A stretch of DNA of 64,000 nucleotides from the NCBI GenBank assembly GCA_030603365.1, contig JAUVXV010000006.1, forward strand, positions 96,001 through 160,000. The letters are read 5' to 3'. This document shows positions 30,712 through 46,170 of the stretch, piece after piece (within the stretch, counting starts at the first letter, position 1; each line of letters opens with the position of its first letter). This DNA is from Candidatus Heimdallarchaeota archaeon. GTDB lineage: Archaea; Asgardarchaeota; Heimdallarchaeia; Heimdallarchaeales; Heimdallarchaeaceae. Made by a program: the position numbers and the translations under genes. The notes beneath the pieces were generated by a model. That model made no database searches, was not told where the DNA came from, and was given only the letters and a program-made list of their open reading frames with translations.

Positions 30712-32181
30712 TCATAATCCTCTTAATCTTGCATGGATGTAGTCATCTTTTTCATTGACTGAATAAAGAAATTCAGCTCTACCTTTTTCTGTTTGTTTTA
30801 TATTTACTAAATTTTTCCTATTTAGATCTGCAAGTGGTTTTGGAGGTTTTCTCTTCAGTTCATTTTCAGTAATTAAATTCTGATTTATTCTTTTTTGTAT
30901 CAGCCATTTTTTAATTTCAATTCGAATTCCGTATGCACTCATAGAACCTAAAGGTTTTGGAGTTTGTAGCTTTAAACCAGATATTCCTTTATTAACAACA
31001 TCTTCTTTATATTTATCAAGAAGAAAATCAAGAATAACCTTTTCTTTTTGAGTTAAAATTGGTTCAGTAATTTGGTTTCTTTCTAAATCATAGTTCTTTC
31101 TTATTTTATTTATAATAGTATTTCCGCGTGACAGAAACATTACCTGTTCTCTTAGTTCCCAAGTTTTAATCTTACTAATGATTATCTCTTGTATCTTATC
31201 ACTGTATTTTTGATAGGCTAATATTTCTGCTGATTTCTTAAATAATACCCTTTGATAATGCTTTGGTAAAATTTTCAAATTTTCGAGAGATGAATAATAA
31301 ATGACATCGAACACAGCTAGTGAGTACTCAAAAAATTCGAACTTTTTTTCAATCGGTTTTTCATTAATTTCTTCCTTATTCAAAATGTCTATCGTTCTAT
31401 CTGCTAAAACACGTAACATGAAAATAAGATTAATAGCATGTTTTATCCTTTCAAGGAATAATTTACTGTAGTTCTTCTCACGAATTAATAGAATTTTATT
31501 AAAATCCAGAAAAACTATATTTACATCATTTATTTTGATTTTTTTCTTGTTTCTTAAATCAAAATTAAGTTTCTTTAGATTTTTAGAATTTACTTCAATC
31601 ATAGTATGAGTATTTGATTCCATAACATGAAACTTACTAAAATCAGTGAAAACAGCTGATAAAATATCCATTTTTTCTGAAGTTTTTTCTCTGTTGCAAA
31701 TTTTTGCGATTTTATCTAACTTTTCTTGTATCTTTTTTGTTTCAGTATTTACTTCTAGTGATACTTTTTTTGTTATAGTTCCAATAAGAGAAGGAAAAAT
31801 CTCAACTCGTTTTCTAGGTTTCAATAATTCTAAGTCATTTTCATTAATAATCCATTTAATATAGTTAGAAACAAAAGCAATAAGTGGTCGAATTGGTTCT
31901 TTGTCACAAATATAACCTCTTGTATTTCTATAATAATTGTATGATTCAGTTGTTAACCCAATTTTGACTTTCCCCATCTTAGGAACGAAAAAATCGTGAT
32001 TTTTATCTTTATAATTATCTTCTTTTGTTTTGTTTTTCTTTGCAAAATAAAGTTGTTCAAGTTTTTGGCAGAACTTTTCACTGGTTTTAAGAAACTCTAG
32101 AGGTTTTCTAACATTTTCTTCATAAATTATCTCTAATAATGGAACAAAAAAACTGAAAGTCAAATCAATTTTATTTTTCAT
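30712..32181 (-). CDS. Hypothetical protein with C-terminal winged helix
   Basis: LTQKEKVILDFL...LADLNRKNLV...GRAEFLYSV; 4-bp overlap with the regulator. Confidence 0.55.
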   Translation of the reverse strand: MKNKIDLTFSFFVPLLEIIYEENVRKPLEFLKTSEKFCQKLEQLYFAKKNKTKEDNYKDKNHDFFVPKMGKVKIGLTTESYNYYRNTRGYICDKEPIRPLIAFVSNYIKWIINENDLELLKPRKRVEIFPSLIGTITKKVSLEVNTETKKIQEKLDKIAKICNREKTSEKMDILSAVFTDFSKFHVMESNTHTMIEVNSKNLKKLNFDLRNKKKIKINDVNIVFLDFNKILLIREKNYSKLFLERIKHAINLIFMLRVLADRTIDILNKEEINEKPIEKKFEFFEYSLAVFDVIYYSSLENLKILPKHYQRVLFKKSAEILAYQKYSDKIQEIIISKIKTWELREQVMFLSRGNTIINKIRKNYDLERNQITEPILTQKEKVILDFLLDKYKEDVVNKGISGLKLQTPKPLGSMSAYGIRIEIKKWLIQKRINQNLITENELKRKPPKPLADLNRKNLVNIKQTEKGRAEFLYSVNEKDDYIHARLRGL

Positions 32182-33668
32182 TCTCTATCACCCAGAATAT
32201 CATTTGAGTTATATTTCCACTCTTGGAATACTGTTTCATATCTTTCTGTAGGTAACTTCCATCTTCTACTATACATCTGATTGATAACAAACATTTCCTT
32301 TACATCTTTTTTGAAAAACATATTAAACAGGCTCATACAATCAAATATCATTTCGGTTGGAATCCTTACAATAAAATGCAATCCTTGATCTGTCTCATTA
32401 ACATACTTTTGGCTATACAATTCTGGAAAAATTGACAACTGTTTATGAATTGTTAGCTGTTCTGAAGGATCTTTTGATAGAAACAGTACTAGATTTGATA
32501 AACCAAAAACATAGTTTGGATTGATTTTTGATCTGAAGTATTGATGTTTTTGTAAATTTTCAACTTGTTTTCGTGCTTCTTTCTCACTTATTCCAAAGTC
32601 ATTTTTTATGGCATTTATTGACATTTCGTTTTTCATCAGCATATGATTGAGAATTTCTATTCCTGTTTTATGCAGATTCAAGACATGTTCCTGATTTTCC
32701 TTAAATTCAGGAACAATAATTGGTAGATTCTTACTATCACTCAATTCTTCCCAGTCTAGAGCTGATGCAATCTTATAGTATGGTAAATCCCATTTTCCGT
32801 ATCTATAGTCATAATTGGCAAAATTGAACGACTTCAACCTGCTGTTCATTTCAAATTTGAATATATTGGAAGAAACAATTTCATTTCTCTCGTTAATAAT
32901 ATCACATAATTTCTGTAAATCATTCTTAACTTGATTATTATCGGGAGTTATATAATTGATCATCACTGATTGTGAATTAGAGTAACTAGTATAAATAGAA
33001 TGCAAAAATGAACTATCTGGTAGTTCCTTGAAGAAGTCAATCTTAGAGGATAAGGGAACATTATAGACAATACCATAAATAGCTAAATTCAGTACTGAAT
33101 AGTTCAGAGATAAACCTGTATAAATGAGCTGTCGTTCCCTTAATTTCCTTTTATATTTTGAGAGGTTTGATGAATCCATTTTTATCTTATCTAACAATTC
33201 ATTATTGCTCATTGTCTGTTCCTTAAGTATGACCTGAAAAACTTCAAATTCCTTTGTATTAAACTTGGGCATAATTTTGGAGCGATAATCAAAGAATATT
33301 TGTAGAAAAGTATTCCAGGATAGTGGGATTTTCTTCTTTTTGAAATAATCTAAAATATTAAAAAAGTGTTTTGATGATTCATCGGAACAACAAAAATTTA
33401 GATAAGAGAAAGGAACTATATAACTGAAATTCTCAAATTTAATTGTTTTTCGATTCTTTGACCAAAAACTGTACCATTCATCGAATTTCTGCTTCTTCTT
33501 TGTTAATTTAGTTCGAATATAGAAGCAAATTATATCCCATTCAGGTGAATCTAATCTAGCTTCATATTTAATAACTAATCTTTCAAAATCTTTGAAAAGA
33601 TCCTGCAGAATTTCTTCTGCTAGTTCCATTCTTTTCTTCTGTTCTGGATTCTGAATGAAAGTCATCAA
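32178..33668 (-). CDS. Multi-domain Lrp/AsnC-like transcriptional regulator (two wHTH plus ferredoxin-like units)
   Basis: FNTKEFEVFQVIL...MDSSNLSKYKRKL...LNYSVLNL; second HTH GIEILNH...FGISEKEARKQVENL...NPNYVFGL. Confidence 0.65.
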   Translation of the reverse strand: MMTFIQNPEQKKRMELAEEILQDLFKDFERLVIKYEARLDSPEWDIICFYIRTKLTKKKQKFDEWYSFWSKNRKTIKFENFSYIVPFSYLNFCCSDESSKHFFNILDYFKKKKIPLSWNTFLQIFFDYRSKIMPKFNTKEFEVFQVILKEQTMSNNELLDKIKMDSSNLSKYKRKLRERQLIYTGLSLNYSVLNLAIYGIVYNVPLSSKIDFFKELPDSSFLHSIYTSYSNSQSVMINYITPDNNQVKNDLQKLCDIINERNEIVSSNIFKFEMNSRLKSFNFANYDYRYGKWDLPYYKIASALDWEELSDSKNLPIIVPEFKENQEHVLNLHKTGIEILNHMLMKNEMSINAIKNDFGISEKEARKQVENLQKHQYFRSKINPNYVFGLSNLVLFLSKDPSEQLTIHKQLSIFPELYSQKYVNETDQGLHFIVRIPTEMIFDCMSLFNMFFKKDVKEMFVINQMYSRRWKLPTERYETVFQEWKYNSNDILGDRE

Positions 33669-33727: not shown

Positions 33728-33747
33728 ATCGGGTAAAATTACCCAAT
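33728..33747. promoter_or_regulatory. Palindrome GGGTAA-AA-TTACCC between the regulator and the peptide gene; candidate operator
   Basis: atcgggtaaaattacccaat. Confidence 0.45.
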
Positions 33748-33867
33748 AGTTATTTTCTAATTTTAAGCGCTGAAACCTAGTAATTTTACACTTTTAACCT
33801 CTTTGTCTGCAGAAATATAGCTCATACTATCGGACGCGAATGTTAAACCAAGGAGGTGAAAAGGAAA

Positions 33868-33921
33868 ATGAAAGGACCAATAGAATTTCCACCAGACGAC
33901 CCAGAACCCTGGCCTCCATAA
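33868..33921 (+). CDS. Unannotated 17-aa peptide MKGPIEFPPDDPEPWPP
   Basis: AGGAGGTGA SD at 33851-33859, ATG at 33868, TAA at 33919-33921, followed by a hairpin. Confidence 0.6.
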   Translation: MKGPIEFPPDDPEPWPP

Positions 33922-33931
33922 GGTCAGGTGA

Positions 33932-33972
33932 TAGGGACAAGAGAGGAGCATTAAATCTCCTCTTAGTTCCTA
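33932..33972 (+). terminator. Stem-loop after the peptide ORF
   Basis: AGAGGAG/CTCCTCT core stem with outer TAGGGAC/GTTCCTA pairing. Confidence 0.45.
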
Positions 33973-34089
33973 GGAGATATACGAATATTCTGGGAATACT
34001 CGCGTGTTCCCTTGAATCGTAAAACACAGGAACTTTCCCAAGATAACTAAATCTAACCCTATTTATTTCTTTTTTCTTTGTAGTGTAAG

Positions 34090-34130
34090 ATGGTGAATTT
34101 TCCAATCTTTCCTACCATTTTGAGACTTTT
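34090..34130 (+). promoter_or_regulatory. Perfect ATGGT-N19-ACCAT site plus TGAGACTTTT
   Basis: TTTAAAA at ~34139. Confidence 0.7.
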
Positions 34131-34185: not shown

Positions 34186-34494
34186 ATGGACAAGATATTT
34201 CAATTCAAATGTCTCGAATGTGAATTAGATTTCAAACTAAGGATAGGAGCGGGAGGGAGTTCCAATCTTCCTAAAGTATATTTTTACTGCGAAAGATGTA
34301 AAATCATAACATTGGAACATAAGTGTGAGAATTGTAAAAGACCCCTGAGAAGAATAATTTATCCTCTCAAGGAAAATATACTTGAATTTTATGAAGAAAA
34401 TGGAGAAATCAAAGCTCCATGCCCTCATTGTCATTCAATCTACACGATCCTTATTCCTTTAGACAAGTGGATAACGGACTTTCAACTATGGTAA
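34186..34494 (+). CDS. Multi-CxxC zinc-ribbon protein
   Basis: CLEC, CERC, CENC, CPHC. Confidence 0.75.
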   Translation: MDKIFQFKCLECELDFKLRIGAGGSSNLPKVYFYCERCKIITLEHKCENCKRPLRRIIYPLKENILEFYEENGEIKAPCPHCHSIYTILIPLDKWITDFQLW

Positions 34495-34646: not shown

Positions 34647-34958
34647 ATGTTAATGAAAGGGAATGTTACAGAAACTAGTTACCAATTCGAATGTAATTGT
34701 TGTAAGCTGAATCTAATTCTGTACAAAGGAATTGGAGAGAAAAACAACAAATCTTCACTAAATTTTTATTGTTTTAATTGTCATAAAATAAACTACCAAA
34801 ATCAATGCATAGATTGCGGAGATAAACTCTATTATGCAGTCGAAGTGCCGGAAACAAAGAAATATGAATTATTAGAAAAAGAAAATTTAATTGATATAAA
34901 ATTACAGTGTATGAGATGCAAATCGAAAGACACCACACTCACTTCAATTGGAGTTTAA
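34647..34958 (+). CDS. Multi-CxxC zinc-ribbon protein, paralog of 34186
   Basis: CNCC, CFNC, CIDC, CMRC with similar spacing. Confidence 0.7.
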   Translation: MLMKGNVTETSYQFECNCCKLNLILYKGIGEKNNKSSLNFYCFNCHKINYQNQCIDCGDKLYYAVEVPETKKYELLEKENLIDIKLQCMRCKSKDTTLTSIGV

Positions 34959-44236: not shown

Positions 44237-45734
44237 CTAGATTTCATTTCCTAAGATATCAGCTGAATCATATTTCCATTCTTGGAATACTGTTTCATAT
44301 CTCTCTGTTGGTAATAGCCATCTTCTACTATACATTTGATTGATAACAAACATCTCCTTTACTTCTTTTTGGAAATATTTATTGAACAAGCTCATACTAT
44401 CAAAAATCATCTCATTGGGAATTCTAATTATAAATTGTAATCCTTCCTCTTCTTCAGAGATGTATTTCTGACTATACAATTCTGGGAATACAGACAACTG
44501 TTTGTGCAATTGCATCTGTTCTGCAGGATCTCTTGAAAGAAAGAGTACTAGGTTTGATAATCCAAAAACATAGTTGGGATTAGTACGGGTTTTGAAATAG
44601 TTCAACTTACGAAAATTTTCTACTTGCTTTCTCGCTTCTTTTTCACTTATACCAAGATCGTTTTTTATTGCACTTATTGACAACTTATTTTTTAGAAGTA
44701 TATTATTGAGTATCTCAATCCCAGTCTTATGCAAGTTTAGAATTTTTTCCTTTACCTCATGAAACTCTGATAAGATGAAGGGGATTTTCTTATTATCTCT
44801 AGCTTTCGTTGAGGAGATAGCTGAGGATATTTTATAGAAGGGTAAATCCCATTTTCCTAAACGATAATCATAATAAGAGAAATTGAATGATTTTAACCGT
44901 GATAGCATGTCAAATTGATAAAAATTTGAAGAAATTAGAGTGTGTTTATCTTCTAAATCTTGTTTAAGTTTTCGCAAATCTTCTTTTACTTGAGGATTAT
45001 CAGGAGTCACATAATTTACCATTACCTATTGTGAGTTAGAATAACTTGTATAAATAGAATGTAGGAATGCACTCTCTGGCAATTCCTTAAAGAAATCTAG
45101 TTTGGAATCCAAAGCAACAGTAAATACCAGACCATAGATGGCTAAATTTAAAGCAGAGTAATTGAGAGAGTCCTTCAAAAATGAGAGTTCGTTCCAGTAA
45201 CCGTCTCTTATATTTTGAAAGATTGGATGGATCCATCGAGAGTTTTTCTAATAGTGTTTTGTTATCCATTGTCTGCTCTTTGAGGATTGTTTCAAAGACA
45301 AGAAATTCATTCTTATTGAATTTGGGCATAATCTTAGATCTATAGTCAAAAAATATCTGTAAGTAAATATCCCAAGAGAGTTTAAGATTAGCATTTGAAA
45401 AATATTCTAGAATATCTAGAAGATAGGAAGAAGATTCATCAGAACTATGAAGGTTATAGTAAGTAGAAGGAACTAGATAACTGAAATTCTCGAATATAAT
45501 GGATTTTCTATTAGTAGACCAAAAAATATTCTAGTCATCAAATTGTTTGTTAGTTCTAGCTAACTTTGTTCTAATATAAAAACAGATAATGTCCCATGCA
45601 GGAGTGTCTAACTTAGCTTCAAAGGTTACCACTAATTGCTCAAAATCAGAGTAGAGCTCTTGAAGAATTTTCTTAGCTAACTCCATTCTCTGCTTCTGCT
45701 CGGGATTCTTAGTGAAAGGCATCAGATTTAACAT
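44237..45734 (-). pseudogene. Pseudogenised paralog of regulator 32178-33668
   Basis: Three ORF fragments collinear with the 496-aa regulator, split by stops and frameshifts (~45531, ~45165, ~45026). Confidence 0.85.
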
Positions 45735-45771
45735 AGTTCTAACTTACATAATCTTTACCATATGACTGCAA

Positions 45772-45812
45772 ATGGTTTTTTTAGAAGTCATTATTACCAT
45801 TTTTAGACTTTT
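45772..45812 (+). promoter_or_regulatory. Perfect ATGGT-N19-ACCAT site plus TAGACTTTT
   Basis: TTTAAA at 45821. Confidence 0.7.
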
Positions 45813-45861: not shown

Positions 45862-46170
45862 ATGGATGAGGTATATCTATTCAAATGCCTTGAATGTGAA
45901 CTAGAATTTAAGTTGAGGAAGGGAGTGGGAGGGAGCTCTACATCTCCAAGAACAAGATTCTATTGTCAAGAATATGGGAAGATATCAATAGAATCACAAT
46001 GCAGGCAGTGTAGTCAATATTTGAAGAGGGTTATTTTTCCTTTAGAGGGAAATACAATAAAGCTGGAAGAAGCAGGAGAAGAATTAAAGGTTAAATGTCC
46101 TCATTGCTCTTCAAATCAAACTATTCTTACACTTTTAGATAAGTGGGTGATAGATTATCAAATGTGGTAA
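45862..46170 (+). CDS. Zinc-ribbon protein, paralog of 34186
   Basis: FKCLECELEFKLR...CPHC...LDKW; second CxxC degenerate (CQEY). Confidence 0.7.
   Translation: MDEVYLFKCLECELEFKLRKGVGGSSTSPRTRFYCQEYGKISIESQCRQCSQYLKRVIFPLEGNTIKLEEAGEELKVKCPHCSSNQTILTLLDKWVIDYQMW

Follow-up and report, generated by a model that had tools for sequence, protein, structure and literature searches.

The stretch of DNA analysed here (the window, 64,000 nucleotides, nt) comes from contig JAUVXV010000006.1 of the Candidatus Heimdallarchaeota archaeon assembly GCA_030603365.1, where it occupies positions 96,001 to 160,000. It contains a 17-codon open reading frame (ORF) led by a strong Shine-Dalgarno (SD) motif and oriented divergently from the gene of an Lrp/AsnC-like protein. 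The explanation favored as a whole, with a probability of about 0.55, is that this ORF is a micropeptide gene linked to a regulator and carried on an RNA with two features, coding and structured, in one genus of Heimdallarchaeaceae. The cassette itself is fixed in that genus: it is made of the tandem Lrp/AsnC-like gene, a coupled gene for a partner of 489 amino acids (aa), a palindrome with two 7-nt arms around 4 nt (7-4-7), and the small RNA. The source assembly measures 3.65 Mb with 33% guanine plus cytosine (GC), and database homologs of the neighbouring genes carry the name 'Candidatus Heimdallarchaeaceae archaeon'.

The ORF and its start signal are as follows.
33868-33921, forward strand: small ORF of 17 codons plus TAA (33919-33921), encoding MKGPIEFPPDDPEPWPP.
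33851-33859, forward strand: SD motif AGGAGGTGA, a perfect 9-nt complement of the 3' end of 16S rRNA, with an 8-nt spacer to the ATG at 33868.

The presumed 3' extremity of the 16S rRNA of this genome is GGATCACCTCCT, to which the SD motif is complementary over 9 nt, and GGAGGTGA has just 27 occurrences genome-wide. SD-like 4-mers are found before 27% of long ORFs, as compared with 6.6% in a control window. This enrichment, together with the GGATCACCTCCT complement, argues that SD-led initiation is in use in the organism. The ORF lies in a GC-rich region (0.40-0.49 over 33800-34000, as compared with about 0.28 around it), and it is the sole occurrence of the strict peptide motif in a six-frame translation of the genome. 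Concerning the 16S extremity itself (G000 contig C8, minus strand, at about 80195 of the reverse complement), CCTGCGG is followed by some 30 extra nt (AAGTATGTAGGTAGTAGCTTACATACCGCATGT) and then by GGATCACCTCCT. In other 16S rRNAs, CCTGCGG and GGATCACCTCC are nearly adjacent. The stretch of about 30 nt may be an insertion or reflect a misjudged context.

Twenty instances of the ORF were collected, 12 of them from the 25 genomes of the genus that were searched, each beside the ortholog of the divergent gene (G000, G001, G004, G005, G007, G011, G012, G013, G014, G016, G017 and G020), and eight from metagenome or assembly contigs. These instances comprise 19 distinct core DNA sequences and encode 17 distinct peptides of 15-19 aa, with P-[D/N]-[D/E]-P-x-[P/F]-W-P as the core. 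Among 40 relatives searched at the DNA level, five genomes, all of this genus, gave the locus with 79-92% identity, and a pattern combining the SD with the core motif gave one copy per genome in six of the 25 genomes of the genus and no match in 22 genomes from other genera of the order. Orthologs of the 496-aa divergent gene having 38-42% identity are accompanied by a second subgroup of the ORF (B, the first being subgroup A); its peptides, MF.P..DPDEPEFWPP and MYGPDGNPDDPEFWPP, are each preceded by an SD and lie divergently about 200 nt upstream of the gene. An intermediate form, MGPDQWPPNDPDPWPP, accompanies a 39%-identity ortholog (L338). Database homologs of the 496-aa protein led to eleven further contigs, and the ORF is present in all seven of these that have at least about 210 nt of upstream DNA. 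The upstream DNA of L332 and L341 is too short to judge and P0012 falls outside the count; L337, one of the eleven, has no ORF, and its upstream region resembles that of another genus (G041).

Wider scans gave little more. The loose pattern GGAGGT-N(8-38)-GAYGAYCCNNNNCCNTGG, run over genome and metagenome contig collections, returned 240 loci, nearly all of them chance matches in high-GC bacteria because the pattern is too loose for collections of that size; the real ones are L167, L175 and L242. A tighter pattern had no match on viral contigs.

Within the eight-codon core, 3, 2 and 7 sites vary at codon positions 1, 2 and 3, respectively, over the 20 instances. Every third position at which a silent change is possible, seven in all, is variable, and variation at first and second positions is confined to three codons, those of 'x', D/N and P/F. 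The ratio of synonymous to non-synonymous codon differences is 380:288 in frame, as compared with 42:615 and 110:528 out of frame; for a 10-codon core in seven sequences, the corresponding figures are 44:41, as compared with 5:83 and 14:57. Over the whole ORF, the ratio of non-synonymous to synonymous change (pN/pS) is 0.50. Moreover, the frame is preserved across insertions and deletions in seven aligned orthologous ORFs. The distance from the ATG to the core is 44 or 47 nt, so that it changes by multiples of three only, while the distance from the SD to the ATG differs by 1 nt; thus, the frame is kept relative to the start codon. The ATG is invariant, the SD reads GGAGGTG or GAGGTG in 19 of the 20 instances (GGAGGTA in G014), and the N-terminal residues, M-x-[G/D]-P, are fairly conserved. 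Judging from these comparisons, the 17-codon ORF is very probably a real coding gene under purifying selection. Two antisense ORFs, 33763-33951 and 33827-34105, were rejected because stops interrupt them in relatives.

All 17 peptide variants are acidic, with a net charge of about -3, and proline-rich, proline occupying 7-8 of the 15-19 codons; the only invariant residues are Pro, Asp/Glu and Trp. The variants end in WP*, WPP*, WPPM*, WPPF* or WPPIKL*. As a side observation, two paralogous FrhB/FdhB-like 4Fe-4S proteins of 327 and 328 aa end in LFG.F.PDDP.EFI[ML], a faint likeness to the peptide (G000 C3:5011-5997 and C4:27643-28626; L330, L331). Mimicry of a host protein motif by the peptide (MFGP..FPPDDP.PW..) was rejected, since a loose match of the FrhB/FdhB type is expected by chance at about this rate.

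The second line of evidence is the linkage of the ORF to the divergent gene pair.
32178-33665, reverse strand: gene of a 495/496-aa protein, an N-terminal helical domain followed by two tandem Lrp/AsnC-like modules, each a winged helix-turn-helix (wHTH) plus a RAM domain; head-to-head with the small ORF.
30712-32181, reverse strand: gene of a 489-aa protein with a probable C-terminal winged helix; its start overlaps the stop of the 496-aa gene.

In the AlphaFold model of the 496-aa protein (predicted local distance difference test, pLDDT, 77.5), a wHTH followed by a beta-alpha-beta-beta-alpha-beta RAM domain occurs twice, at residues ~138-281 and ~334-467. A Foldseek search with this model gave the tandem Lrp-like protein NirDL first (4ch7, E 8e-8), then many Lrp/AsnC regulators with probabilities of about 1.0; at the sequence level, the wHTH matches are weak (residues ~133-184 and ~321-383). 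Going by its modelled fold, the neighbour of the ORF is Lrp/AsnC-like. An earlier interpretation of this DNA, made from its letters alone (the sequence-only reading), had placed the ORF head-to-head with an Lrp-like gene, which agrees with the gene found at 32178-33665 on the reverse strand and with its two tandem modules. The 489-aa protein was modelled with a pLDDT of 83; its fold search gave weak rows of winged-helix type, no significant PDB match and no enzyme-fold match. The possibility that this partner is a paralog or an enzyme was rejected, given the absence of similarity to the 496-aa protein and of any significant fold match. The 496-aa/489-aa gene pair recurs in relatives.

Wherever an ortholog of the 496-aa gene could be assessed in the genus, even at 38% identity, the small ORF stands next to it (the pair spans 38-72%), and in all assessable loci the ORF is divergent from the ~495-aa gene and ~200-380 nt upstream of it. 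The sequence-only reading had staked its case on a conserved small ORF beside homologous regulators, and one is kept down to 38% protein identity. What follows the ORF, on the other hand, varies: in subgroup A a Zn-ribbon gene of 102 aa is the usual one, G016 has another gene, at least 451 aa long, and the loci of subgroup B have yet others. Because the downstream gene differs between lineages, the tandem Lrp-like gene is the constant partner. Upstream of its homologs in four other genera of the family, and of more distant homologs, there is no small ORF that is both Pro-rich and SD-led; the ORF is therefore restricted to the genus. In G043, from another genus of the family, the tandem Lrp-like family is multi-copy (six matches), with three full-length copies in tandem on C37:353-5039. 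No Pro-rich small ORF was found upstream of the third of these tandem copies, the only place inspected in G043.

The intergenic region between the two divergent units contains the following elements.
33730-33747, no strand: 7-4-7 palindrome TCGGGTA-AAAT-TACCCAA, probable operator of the divergent tandem Lrp-like protein.
33731-33744, no strand: inner palindrome GGGTAAAATTACCC, part of the 7-4-7 repeat.
33798-33820, forward strand: conserved box CCTCTTTGTCTGCAGAAATATAG after the A/T-rich ACTTTTAA, putative promoter or initiator of the small RNA.

The palindrome is present in both peptide subgroups, as TCGGGTA-AAAW-TACCCGA, and its arms change in concert between lineages: it reads TCATGTA-AAAT-TACATGA in L338 and TCAGGCA-AAAT-TACCTGA in L335. 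Since both arms change symmetrically, the palindrome reads as the binding site of a dimeric protein, and it is a probable operator for the adjacent tandem Lrp-like protein. A paralogous cassette occurs on G013:C8 (L327/L062), ~200 nt upstream of a paralogous 486-aa gene, at 27-28% protein identity. It has, at the same place, the palindrome TTGTCCA-TTCT-TGGACAA, and a Pro-rich small ORF of 23 aa, MKSDNWICPPNGDPNDPEPLPVP, behind a weak GGTGA; this is a single instance, and the ORF is unconfirmed. The box CCTCTTTGTCTGCAGAAATATAG is conserved in subgroup A, and a similar sequence, CCTCCTTGTTGTCTTCCAGA, is found in subgroup B. Judging from the sequence, transcription would start somewhere in 33815-33845.

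Behind the ORF, the locus is structured. Its folding energy has a z-score of -3.9 relative to shuffled sequence, and five local helices were predicted by RNAalifold, with pairs tallied on eight sequences.
33908-33928, forward strand: hairpin P1, CCTGGCCT/AGGTCAGG, with the stop codon in its loop; 79% of cells paired, two pairs double-sided.
33942-33963, forward strand: hairpin P2, AGAGGAG-CATTAAAT-CTCCTCT, 100% paired in the eight sequences and nearly invariant.
33965-34034, forward strand: multi-helix 3' domain, with P3 (AGTTCCT/AGGAACT), P4 (TACGA/TCGTA) and P5 (GGGAATAC/GTGTTCCC); one double-sided pair per helix.
34060-34080, forward strand: T-rich tract TATTTATTTCTTTTTTCTTTG, a probable transcription terminator, as archaeal transcription terminates at oligo-T tracts.

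Over the whole structure, 91.3% of cells are paired, as compared with 35-53% when the partners are slid. Double-sided, that is compensatory, pairs number five, as compared with 2.8 +/- 1.0 in shuffled alignments, 19 of 500 of which reach five; such changes are found in four of the five helices, all but P2. The conservation of the successive segments, as mean pairwise identity over five subgroup-A sequences, is as follows.
5' stretch before the SD: 43.5%.
SD: 95%.
Spacer plus ORF: 64.7%.
Domain 33942-34040: 90.2%.
Spacer behind the domain: 49%.
T-tract: 78%.

In subgroup A, the T-tract keeps TATTTAT and a run of five to seven T. Subgroup B has a different sequence but a similar string of hairpins, with GGGAGAGG/CCTCCCC as the equivalent of P2 and an end in ...ACTTCC followed by a T-run. 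P1 is poorly kept outside subgroup A, where its equivalents around the stop have just 3-4 bp, and the 3' domain has diverged in G005, G012, L339 and L340 while the ORF is intact. Taken together, the locus appears from its sequence to give a discrete RNA of ~230-280 nt with its own promoter region, a near-perfect SD and an end at the T-tract. The SD, the ORF, the hairpin at 33942-33963 and the palindrome at 33731-33744 described in the sequence-only reading are all found at the locus.

The search for known RNAs was negative: Rfam gave no match at gathering score, whether in the whole window or in the four related loci searched, and nothing with E<=1 overlapping the locus, and a tRNA/tmRNA search found none. 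The RNA element is single-copy in the genome, and an origin as a repeat or mobile-element end was rejected for that reason. RNAalifold also paired the SD with the U-rich 3' end; this pairing, which joins purine-rich to U-rich runs through A-U and G-U pairs, was not counted as structure. Within the 3' domain, loop-less DNA palindromes are seen at 33968-33975 (TCCTAGGA) and at 33983-33990 (GAATATTC, or CGAATATTCG in several relatives). Such palindromes suit protein-binding DNA sites better than RNA hairpins, and the conservation of the domain could thus act partly at the DNA level.

From these elements, the following working of the cassette can be proposed. The tandem Lrp-like protein would bind the palindrome and set the output of both divergent promoters. 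The small RNA would be efficiently translated into a peptide that stays in the cell and behaves as a small extended protein ligand of polyproline-II type. The most plausible target of the peptide would be the regulator pair that it always accompanies, and the 3' domain would stabilize the RNA or add a second function at the RNA level. That the functional product is the free peptide, and not the act of translating it, is put forward tentatively, at somewhat less than even odds. Prediction of a complex between the 17-aa peptide and the 496-aa protein gave a score of 0.02, which speaks neither for nor against binding, the method being uncalibrated for chains shorter than 30 aa. Likewise, the GYF, WW and profilin Pfam models had no match in the genome, a result that is uninformative since the controls were equally silent.

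Several observations weigh against the favored explanation. All instances come from one genus, and the conserved synteny therefore partly reflects relatedness. The C-terminus of the peptide is variable. The tandem Lrp-like fold is also that of an enzyme, the siroheme decarboxylase NirDL, which is why a regulator role is an assignment by resemblance for the 496-aa protein. Within subgroup A, the 3' RNA domain outranks the ORF in conservation, so that the RNA may be the main functional part there. Finally, most of the peptide consists of motifs at which ribosomes are known to slow down, so that the nascent chain, and not the free product, could be what selection acts on.

This last point leads to the alternative that survives best, in which the ORF would encode a stalling peptide (arrest or leader) that acts in cis, the signal being its translation as such. 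Transit along, and release from, the string PPD/DDP/DP.PWPP, often ending Pro-Pro-stop, would be governed by aIF5A (hypusine or polyamine status) or by the supply of prolyl-tRNA; a ribosome slowed on the last codons would open P1 and thereby alter the fold, stability or availability of the 3' RNA domain. The richness in proline fits this idea, as do the pause motifs, PPD, DDP and WPP in subgroup A and DP, EP and WPP in subgroup B, and the Pro-(Pro)-stop end of most variants. Indeed, published work lists PPD, PPW, DPP, EPP and GPP as motifs of strong, EF-P/eIF5A-dependent pausing; it also gives an enrichment of DDP in proteins that depend on eIF5A and a slower termination where a proline precedes the stop (PMC5499558). 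In addition, the stop codon lies within the loop of P1, which has two covarying pairs in subgroup A, and a strongly conserved structured RNA follows directly on the same putative transcript. A peptide of 15-19 aa is still wholly inside the exit tunnel at termination. Leader ORFs with proline codons that obey this logic are known, namely mgtP and mgtL of Salmonella (PMC3641672, PMC5299641). However, no conserved coding region follows the ORF: the T-tract at 34060-34080 ends the unit and the downstream genes differ by lineage. The stop context is variable, loci outside subgroup A have a weak hairpin around the stop or none, and the four loci with a diverged 3' domain (G005, G012, L339, L340) retain the ORF. 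The N-terminal M-x-[G/D]-P is, moreover, also fairly conserved. To our knowledge, no arrest peptide has been described in Archaea. On balance, a stalling peptide is considered unlikely, though worth keeping in view. Its most explicit version, in which the invariant P-D-D-P-x-P-W-P(-P)-stop is an archaeal arrest sensor and ribosome dwell time decides the fold or fate of a riboregulator domain, is slightly more doubtful again. Equally tentative is a co-evolving pair made of the micropeptide and a tandem Lrp-like receptor.

The other alternatives fare worse. The sequence-only reading had seen in the ORF a possible peptide signal. In this case, the peptide would be exported for cell-cell signalling and sensed by the adjacent regulator, which would make the two an archaeal counterpart of the Rgg/SHP, ComR/XIP or RRNPP systems. 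Rgg/SHP pairs do have this layout of a DNA-binding protein gene with a divergent short ORF, the pairing of ORF and regulator is kept across 38-72% regulator identity, and the paralogous G013 cassette has its own palindrome and a different Pro-rich small ORF. Nevertheless, the peptide is acidic and devoid of signal peptide or hydrophobic stretch in all 17 variants; its partner has the Lrp/AsnC-like fold, with two wHTH+RAM modules, and not that of a helix-turn-helix (HTH) plus TPR receptor; and the neighbouring genes include no recognisable exporter, processing protease or oligopeptide importer. An exported signal is thus very improbable.

A marginally lower standing is given to the idea, also raised in the sequence-only reading, that the ORF encodes the precursor of a ribosomally synthesized and post-translationally modified peptide (RiPP), or the source of a peptide-derived cofactor. 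The very short peptide, its invariant Trp, Asp and Pro and the several conserved neighbour proteins of unassigned function would be in keeping with it. In the eight flanking proteins, however, Pfam, NCBIfam and PADLOC recognised no member of the radical-SAM, YcaO, lanthipeptide, ATP-grasp, peptidase or transporter families, novel enzymes being possible, and the 489-aa partner has no enzyme-fold match. The peptides, at 15-19 aa, have no division into leader and core and no conserved Cys, Ser, Thr or Tyr, and the sole gene always linked to the ORF has a fold of DNA-binding type. The proposal of a RiPP-like precursor thus found no support.

Least probable of all is a non-coding structured small RNA whose open frame would be fortuitous or untranslated: the low folding energy (z = -3.9), the GC peak, typical of structured RNAs in A+T-rich genomes, and the 90% identity and compensatory changes of the 3' domain speak for it, but the third-position variation, the frame-preserving indels, the conserved SD and ATG and the far worse synonymous ratios in the other frames stand against it, as do the retention of the ORF where the 3' domain diverged and the lack of an Rfam match. 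The sequence-only reading had named a structured non-coding RNA as what would overturn it; the region is indeed structured, but the structure coexists with coding instead of replacing it.

Some features surround the cassette. A second copy of the module is represented by a regulator pseudogene at 44246-45725 (reverse strand), with TAG stops and in two pieces at 69% and 63% identity. Its 137-nt intergenic spacer contains no small ORF, RNA domain or palindrome, as the sequence-only reading had noted for the ORF in describing this decayed copy. An intact paralog of the Zn-ribbon gene, at 45862-46167 (forward strand, 50% identity), follows the pseudogene copy. These Cys-rich Zn-ribbon proteins of 102 or 103 aa have paralogs at 34186-34494, 34647-34958, 45862-46167 and G000:C6:19269-19547, with four family matches in this genome and up to three in relatives; none belongs to a Pfam family at cut-off. 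Inverted repeats, ATGGT(N19)ACCAT (34090-34118) and ACCAT(N10)ATGGT (45757-45776), lie upstream of both Zn-ribbon genes, directly before the promoter-like TTTAAAAAT/TTTTAAAT, and ATGGT is also kept there in relatives. The ATGGT/ACCAT repeats may be an operator of the Zn-ribbon genes.

Returning to the micropeptide gene, proteins of fewer than 20 aa are nearly invisible to annotation; very few are known in Archaea, and a literature search found none reported for Asgard archaea. The locus provides a clean comparative case, with 17 variants and third-position variation, and it illustrates that a gene family overlooked by gene callers can be discovered from sequence alone. The partner family reaches sister genera that have no ORF, and the locus may thus record the dated birth of a micropeptide gene in a promoter-proximal intergenic region. 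All parts of the cassette, namely the tandem Lrp-like protein, the symmetric operator and the structured RNA, lend themselves to synthesis and in-vitro tests, with no need to culture the organism. Because the peptide consists almost wholly of motifs that require eIF5A/EF-P, the locus can also serve to test nascent-peptide speed sensing in the archaeal relatives of eukaryotes. The conserved upstream ORF of PPW type in eukaryotes (AZIN1) is said to be a polyamine/eIF5A sensor. If the arrest sensor were true, it would be a counterpart of these eukaryotic sensors and the first arrest peptide on record for Archaea, and it would belong to the lineage that stands nearest to eukaryotes. If instead the pair of micropeptide and tandem Lrp-like protein were true, it would be the first peptide-sensing regulator of Lrp type; we know of no Lrp-type protein that senses a peptide.

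How does the locus compare with described systems? The 496-aa protein resembles NirDL (4ch7) and AhbAB in having wHTH+RAM twice in one chain, and its single modules match PH1519, LrpA, LrpC and AsnC; it differs from Lrp/AsnC proteins and NirDL by an extra N-terminal helical domain of ~130 aa, with identities of 10-17% and TM-scores of 0.34-0.63. Rgg/SHP, ComR/XIP and RRNPP systems share with the locus a small ORF divergent from the gene of a DNA-binding protein and paralogous cassettes with their own peptide variant. They differ from it by the HTH+TPR fold of the regulator, whereas the locus has a tandem Lrp/AsnC fold, an acidic peptide without export signal and no linked transporter. Dual-function RNAs, such as SgrS/SgrT, RNAIII/delta-haemolysin and SR1/SR1P, combine a translated small ORF and a structured RNA in one transcript, and archaeal small-protein RNAs have reportedly been found in Methanosarcina mazei. 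The present RNA is similar in joining a small ORF and a conserved structured part on one short putative transcript, but its peptide is far shorter than most of these examples and has no relatives.

The mgtP and mgtL ORFs of Salmonella (mgtCBR and mgtA) are, like the ORF studied here, proline-rich short frames within a structured RNA, and their translation speed depends on EF-P/eIF5A or prolyl-tRNA (PMC3641672, PMC5299641). They lie, however, in the 5' leader of the coding region that they control, whereas the archaeal ORF is followed by a T-tract and by no conserved gene, and has conserved Asp and Trp besides Pro. The PPW-type upstream ORFs of eukaryotes resemble the archaeal ORF, and differ from it, in the same ways. 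Having no sequence relatives beyond the genus, a regulator type that differs from those of all known peptide-sensing systems and no known arrest peptide in Archaea to be grouped with, the locus is a member neither of the rreB/rreR family, nor of the mgtP-type leaders, nor of the dual-function or archaeal small-protein RNAs. Closest among described objects are the rreB/rreR small mRNAs of alpha-proteobacteria. In rreB, which is 165 nt long, a 17-nt SD and a GTG start impede translation (PMC5711450). The archaeal ORF has an SD of 8-9 nt, an ATG start and canonical spacing; it has no sequence similarity to rreB, is proline-rich, has a large structured domain on its 3' side and is firmly tied to a palindrome and to a regulator gene that is divergent from it. 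Nevertheless, both are very short conserved mRNAs with an unusually strong SD and a product of 14-18 aa that is unstructured in rreB/rreR, and both are lineage-restricted, were missed by annotation and encode a peptide whose function is unclear (PMC5711450).

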